DNA of 64,000 nucleotides from Escherichia phage JN02. The notes under the pieces are model-generated. The model saw only the letters and a program-made list of their open reading frames with translations, had not been told where the DNA came from and did not search any database. The translations under genes and the position numbers were made by a program. The DNA is taken from sequence record MT782071.1, one strand, 5' to 3'. This document shows, piece after piece, positions 13,242-60,194 of the stretch (within the stretch, counting starts at the first letter, position 1; each line of letters opens with the position of its first letter).

Positions 13242-13267
13242 GGGAGACTTCGGTCTCCCTTTTTTGG
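13242..13267 (+). terminator. rho-independent terminator GGGAGAC-UUCG-GUCUCCC + U-run after gene 23
   Basis: Perfect 7-bp stem, UUCG tetraloop, then TTTTTTGG. Confidence 0.8.
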
Positions 13268-13269
13268 TT

Positions 13270-13539
13270 TTATTTCTGTGCAATTTCGATGTAAGTTTTC
13301 AAAATATTTTGCCAATTAGGCATACCTTCTTGGACATATGCCGGAGAGCCGTCTTTGTTTTTGAATGACGCAAGTTTATCAGTGGCCCAATAACCTTTAG
13401 CTCGAGCTTCAGAATCAACTTTCATCCATACTTTGTTGAAGGCATTACCATTAACTTTTGCACCATATTTTTCTACTAACTTAACTGCTTCAGCTTCTAG
13501 AACTTTTAAAGTATCTCGTAAGAAACGTGCTTTAGTCAT
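13270..13539 (-). CDS. hypothetical protein (89 aa), antisense to the capsid genes
   Basis: ATG preceded by GAGGAG; own sigma70-type early promoter upstream; occupies the 23-24 intergenic slot. Confidence 0.6.
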   Translation of the reverse strand: MTKARFLRDTLKVLEAEAVKLVEKYGAKVNGNAFNKVWMKVDSEARAKGYWATDKLASFKNKDGSPAYVQEGMPNWQNILKTYIEIAQK

Positions 13540-13569
13540 TTTGTTTACTCCTCTGTAGTTGATAAGTCT

Positions 13570-13600
13570 ATAGTATCACATACCAAATACGTTGTAAACA
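13570..13600 (-). promoter_or_regulatory. T4 early-type promoter (GTTTAC -35, 17-nt spacer, TGnTACTAT extended -10)
   Basis: Minus-strand tGTTTACAacgtatttggtatgTGATACTATagac; drives the 89-aa ORF. Confidence 0.6.
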
Positions 13601-13605
13601 ATCTT

Positions 13606-13613
13606 TATAAATA
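13606..13613 (+). promoter_or_regulatory. late promoter TATAAATA upstream of gene 24
   Basis: Exact TATAAATA about 27 nt before the gene 24 ATG. Confidence 0.55.
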
Positions 13614-13640
13614 ATCTATATCACATAAGGAAAAAATGCA

Positions 13641-14924
13641 ATGAGTAAAATCCAAAAATTATTGCGTGAATCTACAACGTCTACTAGCAACTCAATTGGT
13701 CGCCCAAATCTCGTTGCTTTGACTCGCGCTACGACTAAATTAATATATTCTGACATTGTAGCAACACAAAGAACTAATCAGCCTGTTGCTGCTTTTTATG
13801 GTATCAAATATCTTAACCCAGATAACGAATTCACATTTAAAACTGGTGCTACTTATGCGGGTGAAGTTGGATATGTAGACCGAGAAAAAATTACTGAGCT
13901 CACAGAAGAATCAAAAGTCACACTAAATAAAGGCGATTTTTTCAAATATAATAATATCGTCTATAAAGTGTTAGAAGATACACCATTTGCAGATATTCAA
14001 GAAAGTGATCTAGAATTAGCTCTTCAGATTGCAGTCGTTCATTTAAAGGTACGGTTATTTTCAGATGCAGCGGTAACAAGCAAATTTGAAAGCTCTGATA
14101 GCGAAATTTCTGATGCAAGATTCCAGATTAATAAATGGCAAACTTCAGTCAAATCTCGTAAACTTAAAACTGGACTCACGGTTGAATTAGCGCAAGATTT
14201 GGAAGCGAATGGATTTGATGCCCCTAACTTCTTAGAAGATTTGCTTGCTACTGAAATGGCCGATGAAATTAATAAAGATATTCTTCAGTCTTTAATTACT
14301 GTATCGAAACGTTATAAAGTTACTGGAATTACTGACACCGGATTTATTGACTTGAGCTATGCATCCGCTCCAGAAGCAGGACGTTCATTATATCGAATGG
14401 TGTGTGAAATGGTATCACACATTCAAAAAGAGACAACTTATACTGCAACGTTTTGTGTAGCCTCAGCTCGTGCAGCTGCTATTCTTGCTGCTTCTGGTTG
14501 GTTAAAACATAAGCCAGAAGATGACAAGTATCTTTCACAAAATGCTTATGGATTCTTGGCAAATGGATTACCTCTTTACTGTGATACCAACAGTCCGTTA
14601 GATTATGTTATTGTGGGTGTTGTAGAAAATATCGGCGAAAAAGAAATTGTAGGGTCCATCTTTTATGCTCCATACACTGAAGGAGTAGATTTAGATGACC
14701 CGGAACATGTTGGTGCATTTAAAGTTGTAGTTGATCCAGAAAGCTTGCAACCGTCTATCGGATTATTGGTTAGATATGCTTTATCAGCAAATCCTTACAC
14801 AGTAGCAAAAGACGAAAAAGAAGCGAGAATAATTGATGGTGGGGACATGGATAAAATGGCAGGACGTTCAGACTTGTCTGTTTTACTCGGTGTTAAATTG
14901 CCTAAAATTATTATAGATGAATAA
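13641..14924 (+). CDS. 24: capsid vertex protein
   Basis: 427 aa, same as T4 gp24; gp23-like fold signature; synteny. Confidence 0.95.
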   Translation: MSKIQKLLRESTTSTSNSIGRPNLVALTRATTKLIYSDIVATQRTNQPVAAFYGIKYLNPDNEFTFKTGATYAGEVGYVDREKITELTEESKVTLNKGDFFKYNNIVYKVLEDTPFADIQESDLELALQIAVVHLKVRLFSDAAVTSKFESSDSEISDARFQINKWQTSVKSRKLKTGLTVELAQDLEANGFDAPNFLEDLLATEMADEINKDILQSLITVSKRYKVTGITDTGFIDLSYASAPEAGRSLYRMVCEMVSHIQKETTYTATFCVASARAAAILAASGWLKHKPEDDKYLSQNAYGFLANGLPLYCDTNSPLDYVIVGVVENIGEKEIVGSIFYAPYTEGVDLDDPEHVGAFKVVVDPESLQPSIGLLVRYALSANPYTVAKDEKEARIIDGGDMDKMAGRSDLSVLLGVKLPKIIIDE

Positions 14925-14925
14925 A

Positions 14926-14959
14926 CAAAAAAAAGGGACCTTACGGTCCCTTTTTTTTT
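14926..14959. terminator. bidirectional terminator (A-run, GGGACC-UUAC-GGUCCC, T-run) between gene 24 and rnlB
   Basis: Stem-loop flanked by A9 on one side and T9 on the other; sits between convergent genes. Confidence 0.8.
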
Positions 14960-14960
14960 G

Positions 14961-15968
14961 TTATGATACTAATTCAATCCATGCAGGACGCAGAACATCT
15001 TGCACCATTCGGACTAATTCTTTCTTAACAAGATTCGGATTATCAGATGATGTTAATACAATACCTTCACGAGAAGTTTCTTCCAGAATATCTTGAACAG
15101 TCAATCCCATCACTTTACCAAAATCTTTTGGCGTTACAGTCCCAATCTTAGAAATCACATTATTAACACGATTTAATGTAACATAACAAGCTAGAACATC
15201 AAGCAGGTTTTTGTCAATTTCGGTTAATGGAACCTGAGTTTTAACAGGCTTATCAGACTTTTTCTTTTCACTGAATTTAGAGTTCTTGCACTTAATAGCT
15301 ACACGAGTACCGTTTGACAGCCATTTAGGGAAACAGGGCTTCAGAACATAACCTTCTGCTGTATTATCGCCAATAACATTAGCATCAAATACACAATTAT
15401 TTGCTTCTACAAGGTCTTCTGATGCAGTAGAATTATAAGCGGCTAAGACAGAATCAAGGTCATTTGGAATCATGATAAGAGAATCAAATGTTCCACGACC
15501 AAGCATTGGTGCCATTTTAAAACCAAACGTATTACAGAAATCTTGCATTTCGTAATCACTCATATAATAAGTATCATCACTTTCCGTGTTTATGATGATA
15601 TCGAACACATAAAAATCTTTTTCACCGTAGTCAACACCTTTCTGGATTCCACCACCAGCGAATTCACCAAAGACTTGATATGACACCGGCACTGAAGTTG
15701 AAATACTTTCCATGACTTCTTGAACGGCTTTAATAGCTTTATCATACTTCTTAAGTACGATTTCATAACCATAAAAATCTTCTGCTGGAAGAATAGGGCC
15801 TGTGCGCTTGGCGCATGTGACGTTGTCACGTTCAATTATTAACGAGAAGTTGGTCCCATGGATTTTCTCACGTGCTACCCAAACACCGGTAGTCAAACCA
15901 TTAGTGTAGAGTTTTTCAATAAACTTAGAGTTGTAGTGGTTTTCAAGACTGCTGTATTTCTTAAACAT
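14961..15968 (-). CDS. rnlB: RNA ligase 2
   Basis: 335 aa; N-terminus [21 protein letters not shown] matches T4 Rnl2; adenylation lysine in the KIHGTNFS motif (Rnl2 KxxG motif I). Confidence 0.95.
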
Positions 15969-16059
15969 AAATCACCATTATAAATAATAATATCAAAATA
16001 ATTAGCAGAGACTCTATCTCTGGCCCGATGTTTAATTTGAATGGATAGAACCTAGATTC

Positions 16060-16085
16060 ATTATACCATCAAAAAATGTAAAGCA
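16060..16085 (-). promoter_or_regulatory. candidate T4 middle promoter (MotA box TGCTTTA, 13 nt, TATAAT) upstream of rnlB
   Basis: Minus-strand aTGCTTTAcattttttgatggTATAATgaa. Confidence 0.3.
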
Positions 16086-16087
16086 TA

Positions 16088-16339
16088 CTAGAACTTGATT
16101 TCTATCCAATGCCCATCACGCTGGTCGTGATTAATTTTGTACTGAAAGCCGTTATCACGGAACCACTGCCCAATTTGCTCGGTGATAGTTAAATCATTCT
16201 TTGAGGGATAGTACGTAAATTGTGTCTGACCTTTGTCAGCGGCTTTCTCTGCCATCACAGAGAAGTTAGTAATAAAATCTTTCAACAAATTGGCTTTAGT
16301 GGCCAGGGCCCTTTCTCTTAATTCCTGTGCAAAACTCAT
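16088..16339 (-). CDS. hypothetical protein (83 aa; position of T4 24.2/24.3)
   Basis: ORF overlapping the upstream ORF by 4 nt; position only. Confidence 0.5.
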   Translation of the reverse strand: MSFAQELRERALATKANLLKDFITNFSVMAEKAADKGQTQFTYYPSKNDLTITEQIGQWFRDNGFQYKINHDQRDGHWIEIKF

Positions 16340-16542
16340 TTCTTCACCTTTTTGTTAATCAAACGTTTACGGTATACAACTTTTTCTTTTGCTTTAAACT
16401 TTGACCGAGCTGTCTCGGCTTTAGTCCATAGTAATCCAACTTCTTTAGGTTGTAAACCAATTTTTTGAGCAATTTCTACGAATGAAAATCCCGCCTCATG
16501 TAATGTATAAACTTCAACTTCAGCTCTCATAATCAATCCCAT
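16336..16542 (-). CDS. hypothetical protein (68 aa) with possible helix-turn-helix
   Basis: Segment FSFVEIAQKIGLQPKEVGLLWTKA resembles an HTH; basic C-terminus. Confidence 0.45.
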   Translation of the reverse strand: MGLIMRAEVEVYTLHEAGFSFVEIAQKIGLQPKEVGLLWTKAETARSKFKAKEKVVYRKRLINKKVKK

Positions 16543-16631
16543 ATTATTTGGTTTGTGCCATTATATACATCAATCTCAAGTTGTGTTTTGTATGCTTTAA
16601 AAACGAAGAAAGGGGCCGAAGCCCCTTACGA

Positions 16632-18050
16632 TTATGGATATGTATAGATGATACCAGTTTCTAAAGCAGTTTTATGGATGACGTATCCATTACGTGATTC
16701 TTGAACATCAACTTCCGGATAGTCTTTCATCATCTTCTGAAGTGTGTAACGATGCAAGTAGTACTTACTATCTGGATCTTCAGTTTTCCAATCTTTACCT
16801 TCTTCAGTCATTTTTTGGATTTCATCCATAACCCACCATCCGCACCAGATGTAAGCTGAAGTACGATGTGGAAGAGGATGAACATAAGGTAGTTCACCTT
16901 CTGGTTCTGGAGCAACTTTATCGGTTACCTGAACTTGACCTTCTGCTGTAATAGTTTTGCTATCGTAATCAGTTGCAGTAATAGTTGCAGTAACTTCAAT
17001 AGTTTGACTTCCAATAGATGAGGTATCAACAGTATATACATTAGTTGACCCTTCTACAGGAGAAGAATCTTTCTTCCACGAGTAAGTAATTTGTGCTGCG
17101 TCAGGTGCGCCAGTAACATTAGCAGTAAATGTAGCCGAAGCATCTTGTTGAACATTAATAGAAGGAGGAGTCAATGTAATCTGTGGATTCATTGTCTTCT
17201 TATTAACCGTTAATGATACTTCATTCGAAGTAACTTCCTTTGCATCATAATCTGTCGCTGTTACTTGGGCTACACACTTAATTTTTTTAACTCCACTTGT
17301 AGTTGGAGTATAGCTAAATGTAGAGTTAGTTTCTCCACCAACCTGTGAATCATCTACATACCACTGATACGTAGCAGACGCTCCAACCGGTTGAGAAGCT
17401 AAGGCAGCAGTAAATTGAACTTGGGTTCCAATTACTCCGGCCGAAGGACTATTGGGAGTTACTGCCAACGTAGTTGTCTGTGTCTTTTTATTAACAGTCA
17501 GTGACACTTCATTAGAAGTAACGCTTAGTGCATCATAATCTGCCGCAGTTACTTGAGCTACACACTTGATTTTTTTAACTCCGCTTGTAGAAGGAGTGTA
17601 ATTGAATGTAGCGGAAGTTGCTTCGCCAACAGGAGAATCATCTACATACCATTGATAAGTAGCGTTTGCGCCTGATGGCTGCGAAGCTAAAGCGGCAGTA
17701 AATTGAACTTGGGTTCCAATTACTCCAGCGTCAGGGCTATTAGGAGTTACAGCTAAGGTAGTCGTTTGTGTCTTGTTTTGAACTGTGATAGTTGTAGAAG
17801 CTTCTGCTGTTTCAGCTTCAGCTTCCGGAACTGTATTTGTTGCAACTACTTTAATAGTCTTTTGACCTGCAGGTCCTTTTAGTACATAACTAAAAGTTGC
17901 TTCAGCTCCATCTTGTGGAACATCATCTACAGTCCAAGCATATGTAATAGTTCCACCTCCAGTTTCACCACTGGGAGTAGCAGTAAACTGCTTAGTCTCA
18001 TCTATAACTCCAGTAGGTGTTTTAGGAGTTATATCAACTGTAAAAGCCAT
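16632..18050 (-). CDS. hoc: highly immunogenic outer capsid protein Hoc, 4 Ig-like domains + capsid-binding C-terminus
   Basis: 472 aa; C-terminus ...PYVHPLPHRTSAYIWCGWWVMDEIQ... is Hoc-like; two 93-aa repeats plus flanking Ig-like units. Confidence 0.9.
   Translation of the reverse strand: MAFTVDITPKTPTGVIDETKQFTATPSGETGGGTITYAWTVDDVPQDGAEATFSYVLKGPAGQKTIKVVATNTVPEAEAETAEASTTITVQNKTQTTTLAVTPNSPDAGVIGTQVQFTAALASQPSGANATYQWYVDDSPVGEATSATFNYTPSTSGVKKIKCVAQVTAADYDALSVTSNEVSLTVNKKTQTTTLAVTPNSPSAGVIGTQVQFTAALASQPVGASATYQWYVDDSQVGGETNSTFSYTPTTSGVKKIKCVAQVTATDYDAKEVTSNEVSLTVNKKTMNPQITLTPPSINVQQDASATFTANVTGAPDAAQITYSWKKDSSPVEGSTNVYTVDTSSIGSQTIEVTATITATDYDSKTITAEGQVQVTDKVAPEPEGELPYVHPLPHRTSAYIWCGWWVMDEIQKMTEEGKDWKTEDPDSKYYLHRYTLQKMMKDYPEVDVQESRNGYVIHKTALETGIIYTYP
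17211..17774. repeat. tandem direct repeat, 2 x about 279 bp, inside hoc (duplicated Ig-like domain)
   Basis: Copies at about 17211-17489 and 17490-17774 are near-identical; encoded 93-aa units are about 88% identical. Confidence 0.85.
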
Positions 18051-18059
18051 AAGTTATCC

Positions 18060-18728
18060 TTATTTTAATGTTACGAAAGAAGAATTACGAGTTTCACGAA
18101 TTAGAACTGATCCATCGCGATTAATATAATAAATTAAGCTAAATAATGTTTGGTGAGCAGAAGCATGCACAAAACTAGTTGGGCGAGATTTCCAATCTGG
18201 GGTTTCGGCTATCCATTGATAAATCCACCAAGGAACAGTAACATATCCTGGGCCTTTGCCTAATTTAATGAGTGTAGGACTAAAATTTTCAGGCAGAACA
18301 AATTTTACTTCTTTATTTACCTCTGCCTCAGGCTCTTTTTCAGATTCAACAACCTGAGTAATTGCTTCTTCGAATTTATCATGGTCGAATTCTTTTTCTT
18401 GTTCGACAACTTCTAATACTTCAACTTGTTCTGTTGGAGAATCAAACAACAGAATAGCTTCTTCTTTAACTTCTTCGTTGGTGAAATTAACACCGTCTAC
18501 ATCATCTGCGGCAGTAATTAAATCAGTGATAGATAATCCATCAGTTTCAGGTAATGGTTCATCAGCCAGTGCGTTAAGAGCTTCTTCGATATCAATAACA
18601 ATATTATCGAATGATTTTGATTTCTTAACACTAATGCCAAATTGTTCCGCATATTCAAACAGTTTAGCTTTGGCTTCCTTTTTATCAGAAAGAGCACGTA
18701 ACTCTTCAATATAGTCTTTATCGATCAT
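18060..18728 (-). CDS. inh: acidic protein in the position of T4 Inh (inhibitor of prohead protease)
   Basis: 222 aa (T4 Inh about 226 aa); sits between hoc and uvsW; call is by position and size only. Confidence 0.5.
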   Translation of the reverse strand: MIDKDYIEELRALSDKKEAKAKLFEYAEQFGISVKKSKSFDNIVIDIEEALNALADEPLPETDGLSITDLITAADDVDGVNFTNEEVKEEAILLFDSPTEQVEVLEVVEQEKEFDHDKFEEAITQVVESEKEPEAEVNKEVKFVLPENFSPTLIKLGKGPGYVTVPWWIYQWIAETPDWKSRPTSFVHASAHQTLFSLIYYINRDGSVLIRETRNSSFVTLK

Positions 18729-18741
18729 GATATTTCCTCAT

Positions 18742-18749
18742 TATAAATA
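18742..18749 (+). promoter_or_regulatory. late promoter TATAAATA upstream of uvsW
   Basis: Exact TATAAATA about 30 nt before the uvsW ATG; uvsW is a late gene in T4. Confidence 0.5.
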
Positions 18750-18778
18750 TAATTATATTTATTACATGGTAATTTGAC

Positions 18779-20293
18779 ATGACTGACATTAAAGTACACT
18801 TTTATGATTTTAGTCACGTGCGCATTGAATGCGACGAAAGTACGTTTTACGAACTTCGTGACTTTTTTAGCTTTGAAGCTGACGGGTATAAATTTAACCC
18901 AAAATATCGCTATGGGCAATGGGATGGTAGAATTCGACTTTTAGATTACAACCGTTTGTTACCATATGGACTTGTAGGACAAATAAAAAAGTTCTGTAAC
19001 AATATGAGTTATTCTGTATGGATTGATCCTAAAATCTTTGAGACCGAAGACCTTACCAGGGAAGATTTTGACGCATGGCTTTCTAAACAAGAAATTTATT
19101 CGGGCAACTCCAAAATCGAACCACATTGGTATCAAAAAGATGCGGTATATGAAGGTCTAGTTAATCGTCGTCGAATTTTAAACCTTCCGACATCAGCAGG
19201 TAAATCACTAATCCAAGCACTTTTAGCTCGATACTATCTAGAGAACTATGAAGGTAAAATTCTCATTATCGTCCCTACAACAGCATTGACAACCCAGATG
19301 GCTAATGATTTTGTTGATTATCGCTTGTTTAGTCATTCGATGATTAAGAAAATTGGCGGTGGTGCTGATAAAGCAGACAGAGCTAAAAACGACGCTCCAA
19401 TTATTGTTGGCACATGGCAAACGGTAGTTAAGCAGCCTAAAGAATGGTTCTCTCAGTTCGGTATGATGATGAACGATGAATGCCACTTAGCAACAGGCAA
19501 AAGTATTTCTTCAATCATCTCAGGATTAAATAATTGCATGTTTAAATTCGGTTTATCTGGCTCATTAAGAGACGGAAAAGCCAATGTAATGCAGTACGTA
19601 GGTATGTTCGGCGAAATCTTCCGTCCTGTTAGCACGTCTAAATTAATGGAAGACGGACAGGTAACTGAGCTTAAGATTAATAGTATTTTCCTTCGTTATC
19701 CGGACGAATTCACCGTTAAATTAAAAGGTAAAACATACCAAGAAGAAGTTAAAATTATTACCGGACTAAAACGACGTACAAAGTGGATTGCTCAACTTTC
19801 AGTCAAATTGGCTAAGAAAGACGAGAACGCCTTTGTAATGTTTAAACACGTTACACACGGTAAAGAAATATTTGAAGCTATTAAAGAGCTTGGATACGAA
19901 AAAGTTTATTACGTATCAGGTGAAGTTGATACTGAAACACGTAACGCGCTTAAAGTCATGGCAGAAAATGGTAAAGGCATTATTATTGTCGCATCATATG
20001 GAGTATTCTCTACTGGTATTTCAGTCAAGAATCTTCATCATGTTATTTTCGCCCATGGTGTTAAATCAAAAATTATCGTACTTCAAACCGTAGGTCGAGT
20101 GCTTCGTAAGCATGGTTCTAAAGCTGTTGCTACAGTTTGGGATCTCATCGATGACGCAGGTGTAAAACCTAAATCATTAAATACTAAAAAGAAGTATACT
20201 CATCTTAATTACTTGTTAAAACACGGTATTGATCGTATCCAACGTTACGCTGATGAGAAATTTAACTATGTAATGAAAACAATTAATTTATAA
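18779..20293 (+). CDS. uvsW: UvsW RNA-DNA / DNA helicase
   Basis: 504 aa; N-terminus MTDIKVHFYDFSHVRIECDESTFYELRDFFSFEADGYKFNP matches T4 UvsW; DECH helicase motif. Confidence 0.95.
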   Translation: MTDIKVHFYDFSHVRIECDESTFYELRDFFSFEADGYKFNPKYRYGQWDGRIRLLDYNRLLPYGLVGQIKKFCNNMSYSVWIDPKIFETEDLTREDFDAWLSKQEIYSGNSKIEPHWYQKDAVYEGLVNRRRILNLPTSAGKSLIQALLARYYLENYEGKILIIVPTTALTTQMANDFVDYRLFSHSMIKKIGGGADKADRAKNDAPIIVGTWQTVVKQPKEWFSQFGMMMNDECHLATGKSISSIISGLNNCMFKFGLSGSLRDGKANVMQYVGMFGEIFRPVSTSKLMEDGQVTELKINSIFLRYPDEFTVKLKGKTYQEEVKIITGLKRRTKWIAQLSVKLAKKDENAFVMFKHVTHGKEIFEAIKELGYEKVYYVSGEVDTETRNALKVMAENGKGIIIVASYGVFSTGISVKNLHHVIFAHGVKSKIIVLQTVGRVLRKHGSKAVATVWDLIDDAGVKPKSLNTKKKYTHLNYLLKHGIDRIQRYADEKFNYVMKTINL

Positions 20294-20318
20294 GGGCTTC
20301 GGCCCTTAGGAGATAAAA

Positions 20319-28852: not shown

Positions 28853-28880
28853 AAAAAAGGGAGACGTTGTCTCCCTTTAG
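28853..28880. terminator. terminator hairpin GGGAGAC-GUU-GUCUCCC between convergent genes
   Basis: A-run, 7-bp stem, T-rich 3' side; between the gene 54 stop and the stop of the minus-strand ORF. Confidence 0.7.
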
Positions 28881-29207: not shown

Positions 29208-29238
29208 ATAGTATCACACATCCATGTGTTTGTAAACT
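29208..29238 (-). promoter_or_regulatory. T4 early-type promoter (GTTTACA, 17 nt, TGaTACTAT)
   Basis: Minus-strand aGTTTACAaacacatggatgtgTGATACTATcat, overlapping the alt stop codon. Confidence 0.6.
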
Positions 29239-31324
29239 ATCCTTGGACAAATTTAAACGGAACTGATTCTAAATCCATTAAAGATGCTAACAATTTCAAT
29301 CCTTTAGGAGCACTAGTTTTTTCTACAAATGAGGAGAACGATACCGGCTCATCTGATTCGATTTCACCCGTCATAGCAACCACCTCGCCTGTTTCCATGA
29401 GAACATCACCATCGTAAATGACAGCTTCGTCCAACTGGTCCGAGGACATGACTTCAGCTTGAATAAATTTAAGGTTGGATTCTAAACCTGCACCAGTGTC
29501 AGATGACGCATCTGTAATTTTATTTATCTGCAAGAGAATGCCTCTAGGCAAAATAATTTCTTGCTCATTAGGGTGATTACTCAACTGGCCGGGATAAATC
29601 ACGTTAACTTTATGGGCGCCATCAATAGCCCATCCAACGTTAACACGGATTTGTTCTGGTGCATGCATAGCTGTTCTTACTTGGCTAGGAGAAATAGTAA
29701 CACCTTCGTCATTATTATCAATGTTAAGCTCTTTGCGAACTTCTTCAGGAGCAAGTCCAAGGGCAACGTTCTCTTTAAACCCACCGAAAATAATAGGAGC
29801 TAGTGAAGTGGAAACATAGTTTCTGAAGTAGAATACCTTATTTTTAACCATTGCTTCGTAAATAGGCATTCTGATAGACTGAGCTCTATATAACGTTAGT
29901 CCTTCAGGTAAACGATCTCCATTTAAAAACGCTGAATCAAGACCATCAATAGCGCGTTTAACTTCATCTTCATCTGCAACATCGTAAAAATCTGGTTTAT
30001 AACGACCTAACAACATATTATTAATATCGATATATGCAGAAGAGGCATATTCACGAATAGCTCGTTTTTCAGCAACAGAGTATTGTTTAGGGTCCCGATT
30101 CATTGTTATATTAAAGGTGCCTCTAGCCGATTCTCGTGCATAAGTATACATCACATTAGACAAGAACGCTGATTTACGTTGTTTCCAAGTTCTTTCAGAT
30201 ACTTCAGCTAAAACGTCGTCGGGCAGTTGGAAATTATCACGTCTAAAATCTTCAAACCATTCGTCTTTAATAGAGTCTGCAATTTCATTTGCAGCTTCAA
30301 CAAAAGCAGCTAATGCTTTAACAGATGTTGTTTTTTCTGTTTTAATTTTCTTAGCAAACTTTTCTAAAGTTGGCTTAATAACACCACCATAAGAAACTTC
30401 ATCAGCAAATCTAAAGGATTCATCAATACGATTATAAATCTTATTTTCGATATCAGCAACTAAAGTGCCTTTTGCTGTGGACGATGCTTGGGCTAGTACG
30501 ATTTCATATGCTTCAGGAAGTAATTCGGCCGTAGCTGGGCCACTAACTTCTTTAGCAGAATTTTCGTATTTCTGGAATAACTCACCTTCTTGGCGGTCAG
30601 CTTCTAAAGATTGACTTGCTGCAATAGCACGACGAGAAATTTTAGTACGAGCAATAACAGGCTTATCTTTACGTTTTTCTTCTACAGCAGCAATAGAACC
30701 AGCAATAGCCGTTTCTTTGGTGACCTTTTCGCCAGTCTTTTTACTCACATAAACTTCGCCAACATCAGAATCTACTTTCGTGTACAACTCTGTGTTAATG
30801 TTAGGGATGCCTTTAATATCTTCAATGTTGGCATTTTTACGGACCATCATCACATAGGTGTGTTTACCTGTGAATTGATACATTGCCGACAATACTTTAA
30901 AACGACCACCGGTTTTAGTAGAAACTAAACGAGCAAGAAGAGTTTGAAGTTGCTGTCCGCGTCCTTTCAATTTCTTGGTAGGGAATCGGAACAGAACTGC
31001 ATCCATACGAAGAGCTTTAACCTGCTCATATACTGTATTGAAAATGGTGTTGATTGCATCAATAGGAGCAGGACCAAGGCCATTTTTCAATTCAGCGAGA
31101 TTACCCTTTTCAGACAGACTCATAATAACAACATGAGCGTATTTGTCGCCAAGTTTAACTTGTTTTACAGCATCGCCTTCAGAAAGGTAAGAGAATAAGC
31201 GAACTACGATGTTTGTATCAACATCACCAATTTTCCAGACTTGTGGAACTTTAGCTTTAGGGTTCAAATTGACGACAGGAAGACTGCCTTCAGATTCAAA
31301 CACTTCATTTAATTGTTCGGACAT
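29237..31324 (-). CDS. alt: Alt-like ADP-ribosyltransferase (capsid-packaged)
   Basis: 695 aa (T4 Alt about 682 aa); C-terminal half carries R (LYRAQS), STS (YVSTSL) and Q/ExE (EQEIILPRG) motifs of an R-S-E ADP-ribosyltransferase. Confidence 0.8.
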   Translation of the reverse strand: MSEQLNEVFESEGSLPVVNLNPKAKVPQVWKIGDVDTNIVVRLFSYLSEGDAVKQVKLGDKYAHVVIMSLSEKGNLAELKNGLGPAPIDAINTIFNTVYEQVKALRMDAVLFRFPTKKLKGRGQQLQTLLARLVSTKTGGRFKVLSAMYQFTGKHTYVMMVRKNANIEDIKGIPNINTELYTKVDSDVGEVYVSKKTGEKVTKETAIAGSIAAVEEKRKDKPVIARTKISRRAIAASQSLEADRQEGELFQKYENSAKEVSGPATAELLPEAYEIVLAQASSTAKGTLVADIENKIYNRIDESFRFADEVSYGGVIKPTLEKFAKKIKTEKTTSVKALAAFVEAANEIADSIKDEWFEDFRRDNFQLPDDVLAEVSERTWKQRKSAFLSNVMYTYARESARGTFNITMNRDPKQYSVAEKRAIREYASSAYIDINNMLLGRYKPDFYDVADEDEVKRAIDGLDSAFLNGDRLPEGLTLYRAQSIRMPIYEAMVKNKVFYFRNYVSTSLAPIIFGGFKENVALGLAPEEVRKELNIDNNDEGVTISPSQVRTAMHAPEQIRVNVGWAIDGAHKVNVIYPGQLSNHPNEQEIILPRGILLQINKITDASSDTGAGLESNLKFIQAEVMSSDQLDEAVIYDGDVLMETGEVVAMTGEIESDEPVSFSSFVEKTSAPKGLKLLASLMDLESVPFKFVQG

Positions 31325-35676: not shown

Positions 35677-35711
35677 AATTTCCTCAGTGGGAGCCGAAGC
35701 TCCCAATTAAT

Positions 35712-36110: not shown

Positions 36111-36146
36111 ACAGGTCTATAATAACATAACCTGTACCAAAGTAAA
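36111..36146 (-). promoter_or_regulatory. T4 early-type promoter (GTTTAC, 17 nt, TATATA)
   Basis: Minus-strand aGTTTACtttggtacaggttatgtTATATAgac. Confidence 0.45.
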
Positions 36147-36151
36147 CTGTT

Positions 36152-36520
36152 TTATGCAACTTTAATCCAATTGTCTAAATTTAAAACACCTTTGGCTTTC
36201 ATTTTTTCTATCAGGTTATCTGCTGTAATGCGTCCATTTTGATACCATGTAACATCTTCAGAGTAACCAGTTTCTTCGTCAACGTATGTTTCTGAACGAA
36301 TTTTACCGGTAATAATAGTTTTTAATTCGTATGTGTCACCTGTGAAAAGGTTTGCTAACACAATTTTCCAAGAGAAATCATCAGAAGGACCTTCAGGGGT
36401 CATACAACCTACGAACTCAAATTGCTCTTTGTATAACATCCACTGGAATTCTTTAATTTCGATAGCTTTATAACCATCGTGGTCTTTACATTTGATGTAT
36501 GAGTTCAGATTGATTTTCAT
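36152..36520 (-). CDS. hypothetical protein (122 aa)
   Basis: ORF with an early promoter upstream. Confidence 0.5.
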   Translation of the reverse strand: MKINLNSYIKCKDHDGYKAIEIKEFQWMLYKEQFEFVGCMTPEGPSDDFSWKIVLANLFTGDTYELKTIITGKIRSETYVDEETGYSEDVTWYQNGRITADNLIEKMKAKGVLNLDNWIKVA

Positions 36521-36562
36521 TTTGTTCTCCAGGTGGTTTTATTGATTAGATGGTACAAGTCT

Positions 36563-36591
36563 ATAGTAACACATCCTACAGGAGAGTAAAC
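36563..36591 (-). promoter_or_regulatory. T4 early-type promoter (GTTTAC, 17 nt, TGtTACTAT)
   Basis: Minus-strand tGTTTACtctcctgtaggatgtgTTACTATagac. Confidence 0.55.
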
Positions 36592-36627
36592 ATCTTTTTA
36601 AACTTTTTCTGCCCTAAACGCACAAAA

Positions 36628-36645
36628 GGGAGACCGAAGTCTCCC
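36628..36645 (-). terminator. terminator GGGAGAC-UUCG-GUCUCCC + U-run (on the minus transcript)
   Basis: Same hairpin as after genes 23, 35 and 32; lies directly after the small basic ORF. Confidence 0.7.
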
Positions 36646-36650
36646 TAAAA

Positions 36651-36830
36651 TTATGCAGCAACCTTTCCAAAACGAGAAGCATCATCTCGAAGAACTGCAC
36701 GTGCTCTGCGCATGATCTTCTCAACTGTTTGATTAATACGAGAGTTCGACCCACGCTTGTATCCAGCGCGTTTAGAGGTACCATCAACTTTCTTTTCAAC
36801 TGCTTTCTTTGCTTTAGCTTGTTTTGCCAT
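36651..36830 (-). CDS. small basic protein (59 aa), not in the ORF track
   Basis: Translation MAKQAKAKKAVEKKVDGTSKRAGYKRGSNSRINQTVEKIMRRARAVLRDDASRFGKVAA; a terminator follows; below the 60-aa cutoff. Confidence 0.45.
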   Translation of the reverse strand: MAKQAKAKKAVEKKVDGTSKRAGYKRGSNSRINQTVEKIMRRARAVLRDDASRFGKVAA

Positions 36831-40113: not shown

Positions 40114-40143
40114 ATAGTATCACAACTCCACCGTGTTGTAAAC
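40114..40143 (-). promoter_or_regulatory. T4 early-type promoter (GTTTACA, 18 nt, TGaTACTAT)
   Basis: Minus-strand aGTTTACAacacggtggagttgTGATACTATaac. Confidence 0.55.
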
Positions 40144-40145
40144 TA

Positions 40146-40421
40146 TTAAATTGCTTTGCATTCAATTTTTTGTGTACCGAAATTGATATCACATTGGATA
40201 ACTAAATCGCCGTCAAGATCAAATACCACTATGACGTGTGCAGACCCAGGGAGAAGAGTAATAGCAATAGAATCTACTTGGTCTGGGAGCAAAGCATTGA
40301 GTACATGAGTTAGTTGAGCATGAACTCTGAGTTCGGCTGCATTATCAAGCACTTCAAACATATTATTAGCAATAATCTGACTGAAGACTACCTTTACAAT
40401 TTCAGAATAAGTTGGGAACAT
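40146..40421 (-). CDS. hypothetical protein (91 aa)
   Basis: ORF in the co-directional early cluster. Confidence 0.45.
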   Translation of the reverse strand: MFPTYSEIVKVVFSQIIANNMFEVLDNAAELRVHAQLTHVLNALLPDQVDSIAITLLPGSAHVIVVFDLDGDLVIQCDINFGTQKIECKAI

Positions 40422-43645: not shown

Positions 43646-43675
43646 ATAGTAACACCTTCCTTGGTGTTTGTAAAC
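43646..43675 (-). promoter_or_regulatory. T4 early-type promoter (GTTTACA, 18 nt, TGtTACTAT)
   Basis: Minus-strand GTTTACAaacaccaaggaaggtgTTACTATggc. Confidence 0.55.
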
Positions 43676-43677
43676 CA

Positions 43678-44811
<1,134 letters not shown>

Positions 44812-45272: not shown

Positions 45273-45290
45273 AAGTGGGACCGAAGTCCC
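45273..45290 (-). terminator. stem-loop GGGAC-UUCG-GUCCC between nrdB and denA
   Basis: 5-bp GC stem with UUCG loop on the minus transcript. Confidence 0.4.
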
Positions 45291-51493: not shown

Positions 51494-51745
51494 TCATTTG
51501 TTGATGTGTTGTAATAAAGATTCTGCAAACGTCTCATATGATTCCAGGTGTTCTTCTTTAATGCGAACTGCATGATTATCACCCGAAGAATAGAACATCT
51601 GTACGATAAGAGCTTCGTAATCAGACGAAATACATGCTACGTTTTCCGGCTTCAGGCATTCATTGTATGTCGCAAGTGGGTCAGTGAAAGCTGCAACGTT
51701 TTTGCTACCGCAGTAATCCATACTTCTTTGAATAATAAAAATCAT
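51494..51745 (-). CDS. hypothetical protein (83 aa; frd.3 position)
   Basis: GAGAGGAAA RBS; early promoter upstream. Confidence 0.5.
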   Translation of the reverse strand: MIFIIQRSMDYCGSKNVAAFTDPLATYNECLKPENVACISSDYEALIVQMFYSSGDNHAVRIKEEHLESYETFAESLLQHINK

Positions 51746-51775
51746 TTTATTTTCCTCTCATTTGTTGATAAGTCT

Positions 51776-51804
51776 ATAGTATCATGTTTAAAGGAAAAGT
51801 AAAC
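51776..51804 (-). promoter_or_regulatory. T4 early-type promoter (GTTTAC, 17 nt, TGaTACTAT)
   Basis: Minus-strand tGTTTACttttcctttaaacatgaTACTATagac. Confidence 0.55.
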
Positions 51805-51835
51805 AACTTTTTTGGCAATTTACAGATACTCAAAA

Positions 51836-51853
51836 GGGAGACCGAAGTCTCCC
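51836..51853 (-). terminator. gene 32 terminator GGGAGAC-UUCG-GUCUCCC + U-run
   Basis: Perfect hairpin about 7 nt after the gene 32 stop on the minus transcript. Confidence 0.75.
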
Positions 51854-51859
51854 GATTTA

Positions 51860-52762
51860 TTATAGACCAGCTAACAGGTCATCTAGGTCGCCATCATCAG
51901 AGGATGAGGTAGAGCTCATGAAGTCATCTTCAGTTTTTGCAGAACTAAAGGCTTCCATGTCTTTATCAAAATCGTCGAGGTCAGAAGCAACTTTATCTGC
52001 AACAGAAGCTGCGGCAGCTGCTGCACCGCCCAGAGCGGCAGTACCAAGAACCTTAGCGAAAGATTCATTTAATTTTTCAAAGGATTTGAACTGGTCTTTA
52101 GCCGTCAAAGTAGTAAGGTCTACCATCTGGTCATATAGTTCTTTCTGGAATGCTTCGTCATTAATACGAGGAATTTCAGATTGACCCAAGAATTTAGATT
52201 CGTCATAGTTGCTAAAACCGGAAACCTGCTTAGCTTTCAGAACGAAGTTAGCACCTTCAAACGGGCAAGTAACATCAACCGGAGTTTCACCCATTTCGGT
52301 ATCAACTGCAATCATTGCATTGATTTTGTCCCAAATCTTTTTACCGAAACGATATTTAAATACTTTACCTTCGTTATCTGGAGCTTGAGGATCTTTAACA
52401 ACCAGAATATTAGCCCAATAAGAAGTTTTACGTTTCAGTTGAGAATATTCAGTTTTGTTGGTATTGTACAGGTCATTTTTGATAATGTACTGACATACAG
52501 GACAAGAGTCATAATCACCATGTGTAGAAGAGCAATTTTCAATATACCATTTACCATTTTTCTTGAAACCGTGGTTAACAAGAATTGCAAATGGTAGTGC
52601 ATCATCAGTTTTTGCTGGCAAGAAACGAATTACCGCTTGACCATTACCAGATGCATCTAGCTTCAGCTTCCATTCGCCTTTATCTTCTGAAGAGAAACCT
52701 TTGTTACCATTCAGTTTAGCCATTTGAGCAGCGAGGTCAGCAGTAGATTTACGTTTAAACAT
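51860..52762 (-). CDS. 32: single-stranded DNA-binding protein gp32
   Basis: 300 aa (T4 gp32 301 aa); N-terminus [36 protein letters not shown] matches T4; zinc-binding Cys/His cluster (C...H...CPVC); acidic C-terminus. Confidence 0.97.
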
Positions 52763-55041: not shown

Positions 55042-55073
55042 ATGAACCTCTTGTTCAGTTAGTCAACTTGTCT

Positions 55074-55103
55074 ATAGTAACATACTCATTTGAAAGCGTA
55101 AAC
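55074..55103 (-). promoter_or_regulatory. T4 early-type promoter for rnh (GTTTAC, 18 nt, TGtTACTAT)
   Basis: Minus-strand aGTTTACgctttcaaatgagtatgTTACTATagac. Confidence 0.55.
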
Positions 55104-55106
55104 TGG

Positions 55107-55114
55107 TATAAATA
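55107..55114 (+). promoter_or_regulatory. late promoter TATAAATA for gene 34
   Basis: Exact TATAAATA about 30 nt before the gene 34 ATG; abuts the divergent early -35 element. Confidence 0.55.
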
Positions 55115-55144
55115 AGTATTATTGAAACAATAAAGGAAAAACGA

Positions 55145-58100
55145 ATGGCCGACATCAAACGTAAGTTCAGAGCCGAAGACGGTCTGGACGCCGGTGGCGA
55201 CAAGATTGTTAACGTAGCATTAGCCGACCGTACAGTAGGTACTGATGGCGTAAACGTTGACTTCCTGGTACAAGAAAACACCGTTCAAGTATATGATTCT
55301 ACGCGTGGATATAACAAAGGATTTGTTGTTCTTTATGACAACCGTTTATATCAAGCAATAAATGATATTGTGTCTCCTTCCGGGGCATTTAACCTTTTAC
55401 AATGGCGCGCAGTTCGTACTGATGCACAATGGATAACTGTCGCTTCTGGGACTTATCAACTTTCTTCAGGTGAATCGATTTCGGTTAACACTGGTGCCGG
55501 CAATGATATGGTTTTCACGTTGCCAAATGCGCCGGTTGATGGTGATACTGTTGTTTTGGCTGATATTGGTGGAAGAACCGGTACAGTTAAAGTACAGATT
55601 AACGCGTCTGTGCAGAGTATTTTAAACTTTAGAGGTGAACAAGTTCGTACAGTTTTAATGACGCGCCCCCGTTCACAACTATTGTTTGTGTTTAGTAATC
55701 GTTTGTGGCAGATGTATATTACCGATTATGGTAAAGAATCAATCACTGTTACACCTGCGACACCATATCAAGCACAAGCAAATGATTTTATCGTTCGTCG
55801 TTTTACTAGTGCAGCACCAATCAACATTACACTTCCACGTAATGCTAACAATGGTGATATAATCAGCCTAGTCGATTTAGATGGATTAAACCCACTGTAT
55901 CATACAATTGTTAAAACATTTGATGATACAACGTCTATTGGCGAAGTCGGGACTCATATTGCCGAAGGCAGAAATGACTCTGACGCGTTTTTTGTTTTTG
56001 ATGCTGCAAGTAGTTTATGGCGTATATGGGAAGGCGACCAGAAATCACGTCTTCGTATTATCCGTGCGGATTCAAATATTCGTCCAAATGAAGAAGTTCT
56101 TATTTTTGGCACAAATAACGCTACAGCCGGAACTATTAATCTTACGCTGCCTTCCGGAATTTTGAGTGGTGACACTGTTAAAATTTCAATGAACTACATG
56201 CGTAAAGGCCAAACAGTAAAAATTAAAGCTGCCGAAGGTGATACAATTGCTTCTTCTGTTGCGTTGCTTCAGTTCCCTAAACGTTCTGAATATCCACCTG
56301 ATGCTCAATGGGTCTCTGTTACTGAACTAGAATTCAATGGCACTACTTCATATGTTCCTGTATTAGAATTAGCGTATATCGAAGACACCGTTGCTGGTAC
56401 ACGTTATTGGGTTGTGCAACAGAATGTCCCTACGGTAGAACGTGTTGATGCTGGATCCGATACAACTAGAGCTCGTGTAGGTGTTATTGCTCTTGCTACT
56501 CAAGCGCAAGCAAATGTTGATTTTGAAAATTCTCCAGCTAAAGAAGTGGCTATTACTCCTGAAACGTTGGCAAATCGTACAGCAACTGAAGCTCGACGTG
56601 GTATCGCTAAAATTGCTACAACAGCACAAGTTAACCAGAATTCCACAGCATCATTTGTGGACGATACTATTGTTACGCCTAAAAAACTAAATGAGCGTAC
56701 AGCAACTGAAACTCGTCGCGGTCTTGCTGAAATTGCTACTCAGACTGAAACCGATGCTGGTCTTGATGACACAACGATTATTACACCTAAGAAATTGCAG
56801 GCACGTCAGGGCTCTGAAACGCTGTCTGGTATAGTTAAATATGTATCGACTACTTCTGCTACTCCTGCTGAAACTCGTGGGGCTGCAGGCACTAACGTTT
56901 ATAATAAAACCGTAAATAATTTAACTATTTCTCCTAAAGCCCTTGACCAATATAAAGCAACTTATGCTCAACAAGGTGCAGTAATTTTAGCTGTTGATAG
57001 TGAAGTAATTGCTGGTCAATCACAAGCAGGTTATTCTCACGCTGTAGTAACTCCTGAAACACTACATAAGAAAACTTCTACTGATGGACGTATTGGTTTA
57101 ATTGAAATTGCTACGCAAGCAGAAACTAATGCTGGGACTGATTATACACGTGCAGTAACGCCTAAGACGTTAAATGATAGGAAAGCGACGGAAGGATTAT
57201 CCGGCATAGCCGAAATTGCTACGCAAGTTGAATTTGATACTGGAACTGATGATACTCGTATCTCGACTCCACTTAAAATTAAAACTCATTTTGATTCTTC
57301 TGACCGTACCGGTGTTAATTCTGATTCCGGACTTATTGAAGAAGGAACCTTGTGGAACCATTATACTCTTGATATTTCTAAAGCAAATGAAACACAACGT
57401 GGTACACTTCGCGTAGCGACCCAGGCAGAATCTAATGCAGGAACTTTAGATGATGTTCTTATTACTCCTAAAAAGCTTTTAGGGACTAAGTCCACTGAAA
57501 CGTCTGAAGGCGTAATTAAGGTTGCTACTCAGGCTGAAACTGTAACAGGAACTTCTGCTAATACTGCTGTATCTCCTAAGAATTTAAAATGGATTGTGCA
57601 GAGTGAACCAACATGGGCTGCTACTACAGCAATTCGTGGATTCGTTAAAACTTCATCCGGTTCTATTACATTCGTTGGTAATGATACAGTCGGTTCTACA
57701 CAGAACTTAGAGCTATACGAGAAAAATAGCTATGCAGTATCACCATATGAATTAAACCGTGTATTAGCAAATTATTTGCCATTAAAAGCAAAAGCTGCTG
57801 ACGCAAATTTATTGGATGGTCTAGATTCATCTCAGTTCATTCGTAGGGACATTGCACAGACGGTTAATGGTTCACTAACCTTAACCCAACAAACGAATCT
57901 GAGTGCCCCTCTTGTATCATCTAGTACTGCTACGTTTGGTGGTTCAGTTTCGGCAAATAGTACATTAACTATTTCTAATACTGGAACGGCAACTCGTCTG
58001 ATTTTTGAGAAAGGACCTCAAACTGGAACTAACCCAGCACAGTCAATGAGCATCCGTGTATGGGGAAATGAATTTGGTGGCGGTTCAGATACAACACGTT

Positions 58101-59020
58101 CTACTGTATTTGAAGTTGGTGATGAAACATCTAATCACTTTTATTCTCAGCGTAATAAAGCTGGGAATATAGCGTTTAGCATTAATGGTACTGTAATGCC
58201 AATAAACATTAATGCTTCCGGTTTGATGAATGTTAATGGCGTTGCAACGTTCGGTCGTTCAGTTACAGCCAATGGCGAATTCATCAGCAAGTCTGCAAAT
58301 GCTTTCAGAGCAATAAACGGTGATTATGGATTCTTTATTCGTAATGATGCTACTAACACCTATTTTATGCTTACTGCATCAGGTGATCAGACTGGTGGAT
58401 TTAATGGATTACGTCCTTTAGCTATTAGCAATACATCTGGTCAAGTAACGATTGGTGAAAGCTTAATCATTGCCAAAGGTGCTACTATAAATTCAGGCGG
58501 TTTAACTGTTAACTCGAGAATTCGTTCTCAGGGTACTAAAACATCTGATTTATATACCCGTGCACCAACATCTGATACTGTAGGATTCTGGTCAATTGAC
58601 ATTAATGATTCAGCTACTTATAACCAATTCCCAGGTTATTTTAAAATGGTTGAAAAAACTAATGAAGTGACTGGACTTCCATACTTAGAACGTGGTGAAG
58701 AAGTTAAATCTCCTGGTACATTGACTCAGTTTGGTAACACACTTGATTCGCTTTACCAAGATTGGATTACTTATCCAACAACTCCAGAAGCACGTACAAC
58801 CCGTTGGACACGTACATGGCAGAAAACTAAAAATTCTTGGTCAAGTTTTGTTCAGGTATTTGATGGTGGAAACCCTCCTCAACCTTCTGATATTGGCGCT
58901 TTACCTTCTGATAATGCAACAATCGGAAACTTGACAATAAGGGATTTCTTAAGGATTGGTAATGTCCGCATTATTCCAGACCCTGTGAATAAATCTGTTA
59001 AATTCGAGTGGATTGAATAA
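55145..59020 (+). CDS. 34: long tail fibre proximal subunit
   Basis: 1291 aa (T4 gp34 1289 aa); N-terminus MADIKRKFRAEDGLDAGGDKIVNVALADRTVGTDGVNVDFL; internal TPKxL...TExxRG repeats. Confidence 0.95.
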   Translation: MADIKRKFRAEDGLDAGGDKIVNVALADRTVGTDGVNVDFLVQENTVQVYDSTRGYNKGFVVLYDNRLYQAINDIVSPSGAFNLLQWRAVRTDAQWITVASGTYQLSSGESISVNTGAGNDMVFTLPNAPVDGDTVVLADIGGRTGTVKVQINASVQSILNFRGEQVRTVLMTRPRSQLLFVFSNRLWQMYITDYGKESITVTPATPYQAQANDFIVRRFTSAAPINITLPRNANNGDIISLVDLDGLNPLYHTIVKTFDDTTSIGEVGTHIAEGRNDSDAFFVFDAASSLWRIWEGDQKSRLRIIRADSNIRPNEEVLIFGTNNATAGTINLTLPSGILSGDTVKISMNYMRKGQTVKIKAAEGDTIASSVALLQFPKRSEYPPDAQWVSVTELEFNGTTSYVPVLELAYIEDTVAGTRYWVVQQNVPTVERVDAGSDTTRARVGVIALATQAQANVDFENSPAKEVAITPETLANRTATEARRGIAKIATTAQVNQNSTASFVDDTIVTPKKLNERTATETRRGLAEIATQTETDAGLDDTTIITPKKLQARQGSETLSGIVKYVSTTSATPAETRGAAGTNVYNKTVNNLTISPKALDQYKATYAQQGAVILAVDSEVIAGQSQAGYSHAVVTPETLHKKTSTDGRIGLIEIATQAETNAGTDYTRAVTPKTLNDRKATEGLSGIAEIATQVEFDTGTDDTRISTPLKIKTHFDSSDRTGVNSDSGLIEEGTLWNHYTLDISKANETQRGTLRVATQAESNAGTLDDVLITPKKLLGTKSTETSEGVIKVATQAETVTGTSANTAVSPKNLKWIVQSEPTWAATTAIRGFVKTSSGSITFVGNDTVGSTQNLELYEKNSYAVSPYELNRVLANYLPLKAKAADANLLDGLDSSQFIRRDIAQTVNGSLTLTQQTNLSAPLVSSSTATFGGSVSANSTLTISNTGTATRLIFEKGPQTGTNPAQSMSIRVWGNEFGGGSDTTRSTVFEVGDETSNHFYSQRNKAGNIAFSINGTVMPININASGLMNVNGVATFGRSVTANGEFISKSANAFRAINGDYGFFIRNDATNTYFMLTASGDQTGGFNGLRPLAISNTSGQVTIGESLIIAKGATINSGGLTVNSRIRSQGTKTSDLYTRAPTSDTVGFWSIDINDSATYNQFPGYFKMVEKTNEVTGLPYLERGEEVKSPGTLTQFGNTLDSLYQDWITYPTTPEARTTRWTRTWQKTKNSWSSFVQVFDGGNPPQPSDIGALPSDNATIGNLTIRDFLRIGNVRIIPDPVNKSVKFEWIE

Positions 59021-59028
59021 GAGGTATT

Positions 59029-60156
59029 ATGGAAAAATTTATGGCTAAGTTTGGACAAGGATACGTCCAAACGCCATTTTTATCGGAAAGCAATTCAGTA
59101 CGATTTAAATTAAGCATAGCGGGATCTTGCCCGCTATCAACATCTCCTGCTTATATTAAGTTCCAAGATAATCCACTTGGGTCCCAGGTTTTTTCCGTTG
59201 GATTAAACGTTCGTGTAATAAATCCTACAACAGGTGCAGTAGTTGAATCTAAGTCATATAATTTCTCTACTGAAAACGACGCCACATCAAGTGCATTTGT
59301 TACTTACATGGACACATATGCTTCAAATTTTATATTTGCTCTTGTTACTAACGCTAAAACAAACTTTCCGCCAGAAGTTCTTGCATGGTTTACTAAAGCT
59401 GGGAGTTCTGTTATTCCATTAGCTCAACAAGTTTTAAATATAGTGGACATTTCCTATTCGGCATTTTATATTTCTGGTAAGAATGCTATAGCACTAGAAC
59501 ATATTAAGTATAGTAATAAGAAAACTTCAACCGACTATAGTACACCACTTGATGTTGTGTACGACACGATTGATGATATTGGTGCTACCGGCTTCCCTAG
59601 ACGTACGTACGAATCGACAGACACATTTTTATCTGCCATTGGAGGTACTAATAATGAAATTAAAAGGATGCCTACAACATCCATTATTACACCTCTCGCT
59701 GGGTATAAATTGAAGCCTGGAGATTTCCTTTATATGAAATTCCAACTAATGGCTGATGCTGATTTGTTAGCACAAGGGACGACACGACTTTCTATTCGTT
59801 TCTTTAAATCTCCTTCTACTTCACCTATTTCATTTAAGGATATAAACTTTGATGGAGGCGCAGGTGAATGGAAGATATATGAAGACTACATAGAAATTCC
59901 TGCTGGTGCTGACGGGTTCACGATTTATTGTTATCGTACAGCTCCAGTCGGGCAAGGTGGATTAAGAAACGTTATATTCACTGAAGTATCATGTAATGGA
60001 AGCGTTTCAAAACCTGCGGAGTTTGGTATAAATGGTATTCGTGTAAATTATGTTTCAGAATCTTTAAGTGCTCCAGACATAATGACATTACCTACTCAAT
60101 CTTCAACTGATACCGGTAAGGTATTTGGACAAGAATTTAAAGAAGCATCAGAATAA
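59029..60156 (+). CDS. 35: long tail fibre hinge (knee) protein
   Basis: 375 aa (T4 gp35 372 aa); synteny. Confidence 0.9.
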   Translation: MEKFMAKFGQGYVQTPFLSESNSVRFKLSIAGSCPLSTSPAYIKFQDNPLGSQVFSVGLNVRVINPTTGAVVESKSYNFSTENDATSSAFVTYMDTYASNFIFALVTNAKTNFPPEVLAWFTKAGSSVIPLAQQVLNIVDISYSAFYISGKNAIALEHIKYSNKKTSTDYSTPLDVVYDTIDDIGATGFPRRTYESTDTFLSAIGGTNNEIKRMPTTSIITPLAGYKLKPGDFLYMKFQLMADADLLAQGTTRLSIRFFKSPSTSPISFKDINFDGGAGEWKIYEDYIEIPAGADGFTIYCYRTAPVGQGGLRNVIFTEVSCNGSVSKPAEFGINGIRVNYVSESLSAPDIMTLPTQSSTDTGKVFGQEFKEASE

Positions 60157-60161
60157 ATTTA

Positions 60162-60194
60162 GGGAGACTTCGGTCTCCCATTTTTGTATAAATA
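60162..60194 (+). promoter_or_regulatory. terminator GGGAGAC-UUCG-GUCUCCC + U-run followed by late promoter TATAAATA for gene 36
   Basis: Hairpin at about 60162-60179, TTTTTG, then TATAAATA at about 60187-60194. Confidence 0.7.

Follow-up and report, generated by a model that had tools for sequence, protein, structure and literature searches.

Bacteriophage T4 has Rho-independent terminators after genes 23 and 32. Hairpins of the CUUCGG type are abundant in the intergenic regions of this phage, as has been known since Tuerk et al. 1988 (as cited in PMC8948821). In addition, repeated stem-loop/promoter cassettes of T4-type phages, termed PeSLs, have been published as recombination linkers; they combine a terminator stem-loop with an early sigma70-like promoter, a Shine-Dalgarno (SD) sequence and an ATG, and recur beside variable small open reading frames (ORFs) (Arbiol et al. 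2010, PMC2839356; Comeau et al. 2014, PMC4122927). Here, we analyzed an 18-nt hairpin sequence, GGGAGACTTCGGTCTCCC, which an initial annotation had noticed at several loci in a 64,000-nt stretch of Escherichia phage JN02 (MT782071.1; this whole stretch is referred to as the window). The window is approximately 99% identical to Mosigvirus (RB69-like T4-type) coliphages, such as GADS24 and PhAPEC2. Our results made it quite probable that the four copies of this hairpin are intrinsic (Rho-independent) terminators capped by a C(UUCG)G tetraloop; reuse of the stem would be due most likely to short-patch recombination or gene conversion.

An exact search of both strands of the window yielded four, and only four, matches to GGGAGACTTCGGTCTCCC, at 13242-13259 (+), 36628-36645 (-), 51836-51853 (-) and 60162-60179 (+), which agreed with the coordinates and strands claimed initially, and no further variants with one to three mismatches were found in the window. 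Dinucleotide-preserving shuffles contained no copies, i.e., none would be expected by chance. As RNA, all four copies read GGGAGAC-UUCG-GUCUCCC, a G+C-rich 7-bp stem (five G-C pairs) whose UUCG loop is closed by a C-G pair and hence forms a C(UUCG)G tetraloop. When repeats were searched for and the flanks aligned, the sequence common to the copies proved to be limited to approximately 22-35 nt, comprising the hairpin, A/T-rich flanks and the U-tract. Because no extended homology was present beyond 22-35 nt, a mobile interspersed repeat (similar to repetitive extragenic palindromes or miniature inverted-repeat transposable elements) was rejected.

Each copy lay directly behind a gene, on the strand of that gene and with UUCG in the loop of its mRNA, and the distance from stop codon to hairpin was 3-24 nt in all four cases. 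Based on mapping of the window onto the annotated PhAPEC2 record (KF562341), the upstream genes were gp23 (11649-13217, +), a homolog of gp30.9 encoding a basic 59-aa protein (36651-36830, -), gp32 (51860-52762, -) and gp35 (59029-60156, +). The initial annotation had correctly placed the second hairpin after a small basic ORF; however, the ORF listed there, 36614-36799 (-), was spurious, since it crosses the hairpin in another frame, and the real gene is the gp30.9 homolog. Copy 1 (13242-13259) begins 24 nt past the gp23 stop and is followed by UUUUUU (13260-13265), with a folding energy of -14.1 kcal/mol (z -3.7). Copy 2 (36628-36645) lies 5 nt past the stop of the gp30.9 homolog and continues with UUUUGUG (from 36627; -19.2 kcal/mol with flanks), copy 3 (51836-51853) lies 6 nt past the gp32 stop and continues with UUUUGAG (from 51835; -13.4 kcal/mol), and copy 4 (60162-60179) lies 5 nt past the gp35 stop and continues with AUUUUUG (from 60180; -14.4 kcal/mol). 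The hairpin alone folded at -12.0 kcal/mol, and in-context folds ranged from -13.4 to -19.2 kcal/mol (z -2.7 to -4.4). A U-tract was thus present 3' of the stem in all four copies; the two minus-strand tracts were short, and only the copy at 13242 passed a stricter terminator scan.

The terminator role of the four copies is therefore well supported by the sequence, and it is already part of public records. In PhAPEC2 (KF562341), ARNold terminator features were found at all these sites (on both strands at the gp54/alt.-3 site described below), WFL6982 (MK373774) has a terminator annotated at the gp30.9 site, and in TuIa (AJ621579) the hairpin at the same site is annotated as a stem_loop. In these records, which contain the same hairpins at the same sites, each site is annotated singly and the identity between sites is left unremarked. 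The 80-nt contexts of the copies were matched at full length in 104 (gp23), 150 (gp30.9), 152 (gp32) and 108 (gp35) GenBank phage records. Thus, the label of terminator hairpin given initially was upheld by position, U-tract, orientation, structural conservation and ARNold annotation, that is, by sequence and comparison; a literature search for published 3'-end maps of T4-like phages found nothing usable. The copies correspond to annotated terminators rather than to a new element.

A fifth copy of the stem, GGGAGAC-GTT-GTCTCCC, was located at 28859-28875, confirming the loop variant reported after gene 54. Its longer form (AAAGGGAGAC/GTCTCCCTTT, 28856-28878; as RNA, AAAGGGAGAC-GUU-GUCUCCCUUU) lies between the convergent genes gp54 (+) and alt.-3 (-), and with its GUU/AAC loop it is not a member of the C(UUCG)G tetraloop group. 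Because an A-run flanks one side and a T-run the other, this hairpin is likely to act as a terminator in both directions; its minus-strand U-tract is the better of the two.

A plausible order of events may be proposed for these sites. The 7-bp G+C-rich stem with its C(UUCG)G cap, together with the U-tract, would cause RNA polymerase to let the transcript go, and the hairpin remaining at the 3' end of the mRNA would shield it from 3' exonucleases. On the plus strand, the copies at 13242 and 60162 would close the late transcription units of gp23 and gp35; on the minus strand, those at 36628 and 51836 would close the early/middle units of gp30.9 and gp32. The GUU/AAC-loop stem would serve both gp54 and alt.-3. 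Since an early promoter follows the copies at 36628 and 51836, and a late promoter follows that at 60162, the hairpins also represent the upstream half of terminator-promoter cassettes.

Comparison with T4 showed both shared architecture and a clear difference. Like the C(UUCG)G hairpins of T4, the copies have a G+C stem, C-G closure and a UUCG cap, and are intergenic, just past the stop codon and before a U-tract. T4 possesses a terminator at every orthologous site, with a different stem each time: AGGGAACC-UUCG after 23, GAGGACUCC-UUCG after 30.9, GGGACCC-UUCG after 35, GGGGACC-CUAGA after 32 and AGGGAGCC-CAUG after 8, so that UUCG hairpins occur in T4 at the orthologous sites after 23, 30.9 and 35. 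However, the window stem differs from that of T4 at every site. The GGAGAC stem was found at none of approximately 35 terminators in T4, whereas PhAPEC2, taken genome-wide, had the GGAGAC core at 7 of approximately 26 annotated terminator sites (after gp41, gp8, gp23, gp54, gp30.9, gp32 and gp35), four of which contained the exact 18-mer. Because of this difference, usage of the GGAGAC stem is strongly lineage-specific. T4 reuses stems at two sites each: AAGGGGC follows both regA and hoc, and AGGACUCC both soc and 30.9. The lineage studied here has one stem at five sites of the window and at seven sites genome-wide in PhAPEC2, in contrast to a maximum of two uses per stem in T4 (AAGGGGC, and AGGACTCC after soc and 30.9). 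In another T4-like group, an extended form, ATGGGAGAC-TTCG-GTCTCCCAT, was present in 2-3 copies per genome.

We also analyzed the orthologous sites of T4-like phages in IMG/VR. A G+C hairpin was nearly always present at both the gp23 and the gp32 loci, followed by a U-rich tail in 45 of 52 and 27 of 30 loci, respectively, and capped by a TTCG loop in 28 of 52 and 20 of 30; the stems varied at both sites. Only two loci with gp35 orthologs were obtained, which is too few to compare. At the gp35 site, PhAPEC2 contains a variant, AAAGGAGAC-TTCG-GTCTCCTTT, which is annotated as a terminator and differs from the window by a compensatory change from G-C to A-T at the stem base. This change points to a constraint on structure rather than on sequence.

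Two of the copies are arranged like the published PeSLs, with a GTTTAC...TATAGA/TACTAT promoter within approximately 45-65 nt. Downstream of the copy at 36628 lies a T4-type early promoter, GTTTAC ... TATAGA (36557-36599, -; repeat family D4), and the TuIa record (AJ621579) has -35/-10 signals annotated at the homologous position. An early promoter, GTTTAC-N17-TACTAT (51770-51812, -; repeat families D4 and D10), follows the copy at 51836. On the other hand, the gp23 and gp35 copies are unlike PeSLs in that they are located in conserved late-gene regions with a late promoter or none: no same-strand promoter was visible downstream of the copy at 13242, and the copy at 60162 is directly followed by a late-promoter box for gene 36, TATAAATA (60187-60194, +). 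The two form a terminator plus late-promoter cassette, and the same arrangement was found behind genes 8 and 35 of T4 and also in Klebsiella phage F48. The published PeSL stems also differ, being GGGG...CCCC in RB49 or a variable AGNA...TCNT in T4/PST, and the PeSL likeness of the window copies is one of sequence layout.

The next question is why a single stem occurs at several sites. The initial annotation had proposed selection for one very stable UUCG hairpin, which proved to be insufficient as a cause. Calculation of the energies of all 4096 possible 7-bp C-G-closed UUCG stems revealed that 592 (14%) were more stable than the window stem, which ranked 593, and T4 uses other stems at the same sites. 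On the other hand, stems appeared to be shared within genomes. In 10 of the 22 distinct genome types, one 6-bp core was common to the gp23 and gp32 terminators (permutation P = 0.0006, uncorrected for phylogeny), with three shared states (GGAGCC, GGGACC and GGAGAC). A similar trend was observed for spacers containing a terminator and a late promoter: the 8/9 and 35/36 spacers were 91% identical within T4 and 85% within PhAPEC2, whereas orthologous spacers of different genomes were less alike than these paralogs (77-80%). Such patterns suggest concerted evolution, by short-patch recombination among similar cassettes, or a lineage-specific preference. We infer that T4-like phages may pick their terminator stems from a narrow purine-rich set (GGAGAC, GGAGCC, GGGACC and GGAACC), and that within a lineage one stem would tend to spread to several sites; short-patch recombination or gene conversion between the similar cassettes would be the most likely route. 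The idea of spread by recombination, put forward in the initial annotation, was thus found plausible in view of the published PeSL work and the within-genome sharing of stems, although copying is unproven and the 18-mer is widespread in unrelated genomes.

Occurrence of the 18-mer outside this group bears directly on the possibility that nothing was copied, and that each site arrived on its own at a near-optimal hairpin, with a C-G-closed UUCG loop, a GGG/CCC base by the U-tract and a purine-rich 5' arm. At least 120 IMG/VR stretches, whose flanks were unrelated and whose G+C content was 30-63%, contained the exact sequence (a T-run followed 107 of the 122 occurrences listed), as did at least 120 bacterial genome stretches belonging to many phyla (103 of the 126 occurrences listed). 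A control sequence with three internal pairs flipped was also common, occurring in 85 stretches as against at least 120 for the 18-mer, from which no ratio is derivable. As the 18-mer is common in unrelated phages and bacteria, and the flipped-pair control is common too, it is a generic terminator sequence that arises repeatedly. Moreover, approximately five stem cores cover most gp23 and gp32 terminators of T4-like phages, with GGAGAC accounting for approximately 20%, and the flanks of the four copies share only A/T-rich runs. However, pure convergence does not readily account for the lineage specificity seen between T4 and PhAPEC2, for a stem that is exceeded in stability by 14% of its equivalents, or for within-genome matching of gp23 and gp32 stems above random pairing, and we regard it as a somewhat unlikely explanation of the whole pattern. 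Several points nevertheless weigh against intrinsic terminators homogenized by recombination. The copies at 36628 and 51836, with their UUUUG tails, missed the criteria of the stricter scan; they are probably leaky because they have only four U's, and they may be weak terminators or mainly 3' stabilizers. Termination in this phage is inferred from sequence. The concerted-evolution part is based on small samples, uncorrected for phylogeny, and on a strongly constrained sequence, so that copying is not proven: functional constraint on the hairpin, the U-tract and the promoter boxes alone raises the similarity of paralogous cassettes, and the presence of the 18-mer in very many unrelated genomes lends independent convergence some probability.

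Two further explanations assign the repeats a different role. If they were mainly recombination linkers of the PeSL type, homology of hairpin and promoter would drive insertion, deletion and exchange of small ORFs, and termination would be secondary. The early promoters behind the copies at 36628 and 51836, as in the published PeSLs (PMC2839356, PMC4122927), are consistent with this. An 83-aa ORF (51494-51745, -; no Pfam match) is inserted just past the gp32 terminator/early-promoter cassette, between it and an frd.2-like gene, and is absent from PhAPEC2 and from the IMG/VR loci L123 and L148. The copy at 13242 faces a convergent 89-aa ORF (13270-13539, -) in a variable gp23-gp24 spacer, which contains this ORF in the window and segD in T4 and is empty in some relatives. 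Besides, a 35-nt sequence with hairpin and late promoter, GGGAGACTTCGGTCTCCCATTTTTGTATAAATATG, is identical between the gp35/36 spacer of the window and a non-orthologous site in Klebsiella phage F48, its wac/gp13 spacer; as evidence of transfer this is weak, since most of the 35 bases are functionally fixed. However, the insertion near gp32 is edged not by the hairpin but by an approximately 14-nt direct repeat of the mRNA leader, ATCAACAAATGAG(A/G), near 51762 and 51510, and in the PeSL work crossovers were located in the promoter/SD part rather than the stem-loop. Early promoters are missing from the gp23 and gp35 copies, which are located in conserved late regions, an identity of 18-23 nt is short for homologous exchange, and the sites are stable in 100-150 sequenced relatives. 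A linker role as the main function is thus improbable, and the suggestion that the copies serve as sites of homologous exchange, while plausible for the two copies with early promoters near variable small ORFs and published in the form of PeSLs, is unproven. Much less probable still is that the 18-mer is a recognition site for a trans-acting factor, such as a phage RNA-binding protein or a RegB-like nuclease, that would direct RNA processing or regulation. The 5' arm contains GGAG, regB is encoded by the close relative PhAPEC2, and stem usage is lineage-specific. RegB needs an accessible GGAG, and here the stem of a -12 kcal/mol hairpin conceals the motif, for which reason the RegB idea was judged unlikely. 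RegB acts on GGAG motifs in SD regions (PMC1702504). The compensatory stem change between close relatives at the gp35 site also argues against a factor, as does the fact that bacteria of many phyla, which have no such phage factors, use the same hairpin to terminate transcription. A scan of the whole window found no Rfam family at gathering score, and the proposal of RNA-processing sites in the initial annotation was left without evidence.

Besides the identical copies, related UUCG hairpins had been reported after wac, hoc and uvsW, all of which were real: 293-308 (+) after wac, 16610-16627 (-) after hoc and 20291-20308 (+) after uvsW. The one assigned to denA also exists, GGGAC-UUCG-GUCCC at 45277-45290 (-), but it follows nrdB, precedes denA and has no U-tract. 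A second hairpin of this kind, UGGGAGC-UUCG-GCUCCCA, was found after 30.7 at 35688-35705 (-), again without a U-tract, and is annotated as a stem_loop in TuIa. Both are located directly before the SD sequence of the next gene, and they are more likely intercistronic stabilizing or translational elements than terminators. Between the convergent genes gp24 (+) and rnlB (-), a long symmetric hairpin, AAAAAAAAGGGACC-GTAA-GGTCCCTTTTTTTT (14927-14958), is annotated on both strands in PhAPEC2 and looks like a textbook bidirectional terminator.

Several other features were observed in the window and in the database matches. Early promoter and leader families were present on the minus strand at 13536-13606, 29208-29240, 36113-36155, 36557-36599, 40114-40146, 43646-43678 and 51742-51812. 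The promoter, leader and SD sequence of ORF 13270-13539 (-) were 84% identical over 43 nt to those of ORF 51494-51745 (-), and direct comparison of the two products found no protein similarity. The hoc gene (16632-18050, -) contains an internal 288-nt tandem duplication (17193-17768, 80% identity); its product, an outer capsid decoration protein, has 472 aa in the window as against 1131 nt (approximately 376 aa) in PhAPEC2 and T4, i.e., one extra domain of approximately 96 aa. In gp34, the proximal long-tail-fiber gene, diverged 44-48-nt repeats were detected at 56489-57420 (+), in 4-5 copies of 60-86% identity (families D2 and D3). Among the bacterial matches, the exact 18-mer occurred twice within a few kb in metagenome-assembled genome contigs of Gallionellaceae, Sideroxydans and Nitrosomonadales (L397, L414, L453, L456, L460 and L471); it may be a favored, reused terminator in these iron-oxidizing betaproteobacteria as well.

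Taken together, the copies are standard intrinsic terminators of a hairpin type first described in T4 and already annotated in close relatives, and the repeated sequence appears to be a stem favored in this phage group rather than a new element. Their practical use is in annotation: they delimit the gp23, gp30.9, gp32 and gp35 transcription units at the 3' side and expose ORF 36614-36799 (-) as spurious. A more speculative proposal, to which we assign a low probability, is that terminators form lineage-specific dialects, in which unlinked stems are homogenized (to GGAGAC here, and to GGAGCC or GGGACC elsewhere) by frequent short-patch gene conversion or by a co-evolving, lineage-specific factor that reads the stem; if so, terminators would constitute a small, concertedly evolving, multigene-like family in phage genomes. 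The one mildly interesting point beyond annotation is the tendency of unlinked terminators of a T4-like genome toward a common stem, which differs between lineages. If this trend holds under phylogenetic controls, the sharing of stems would extend the PeSL exchange idea to late-gene terminators.

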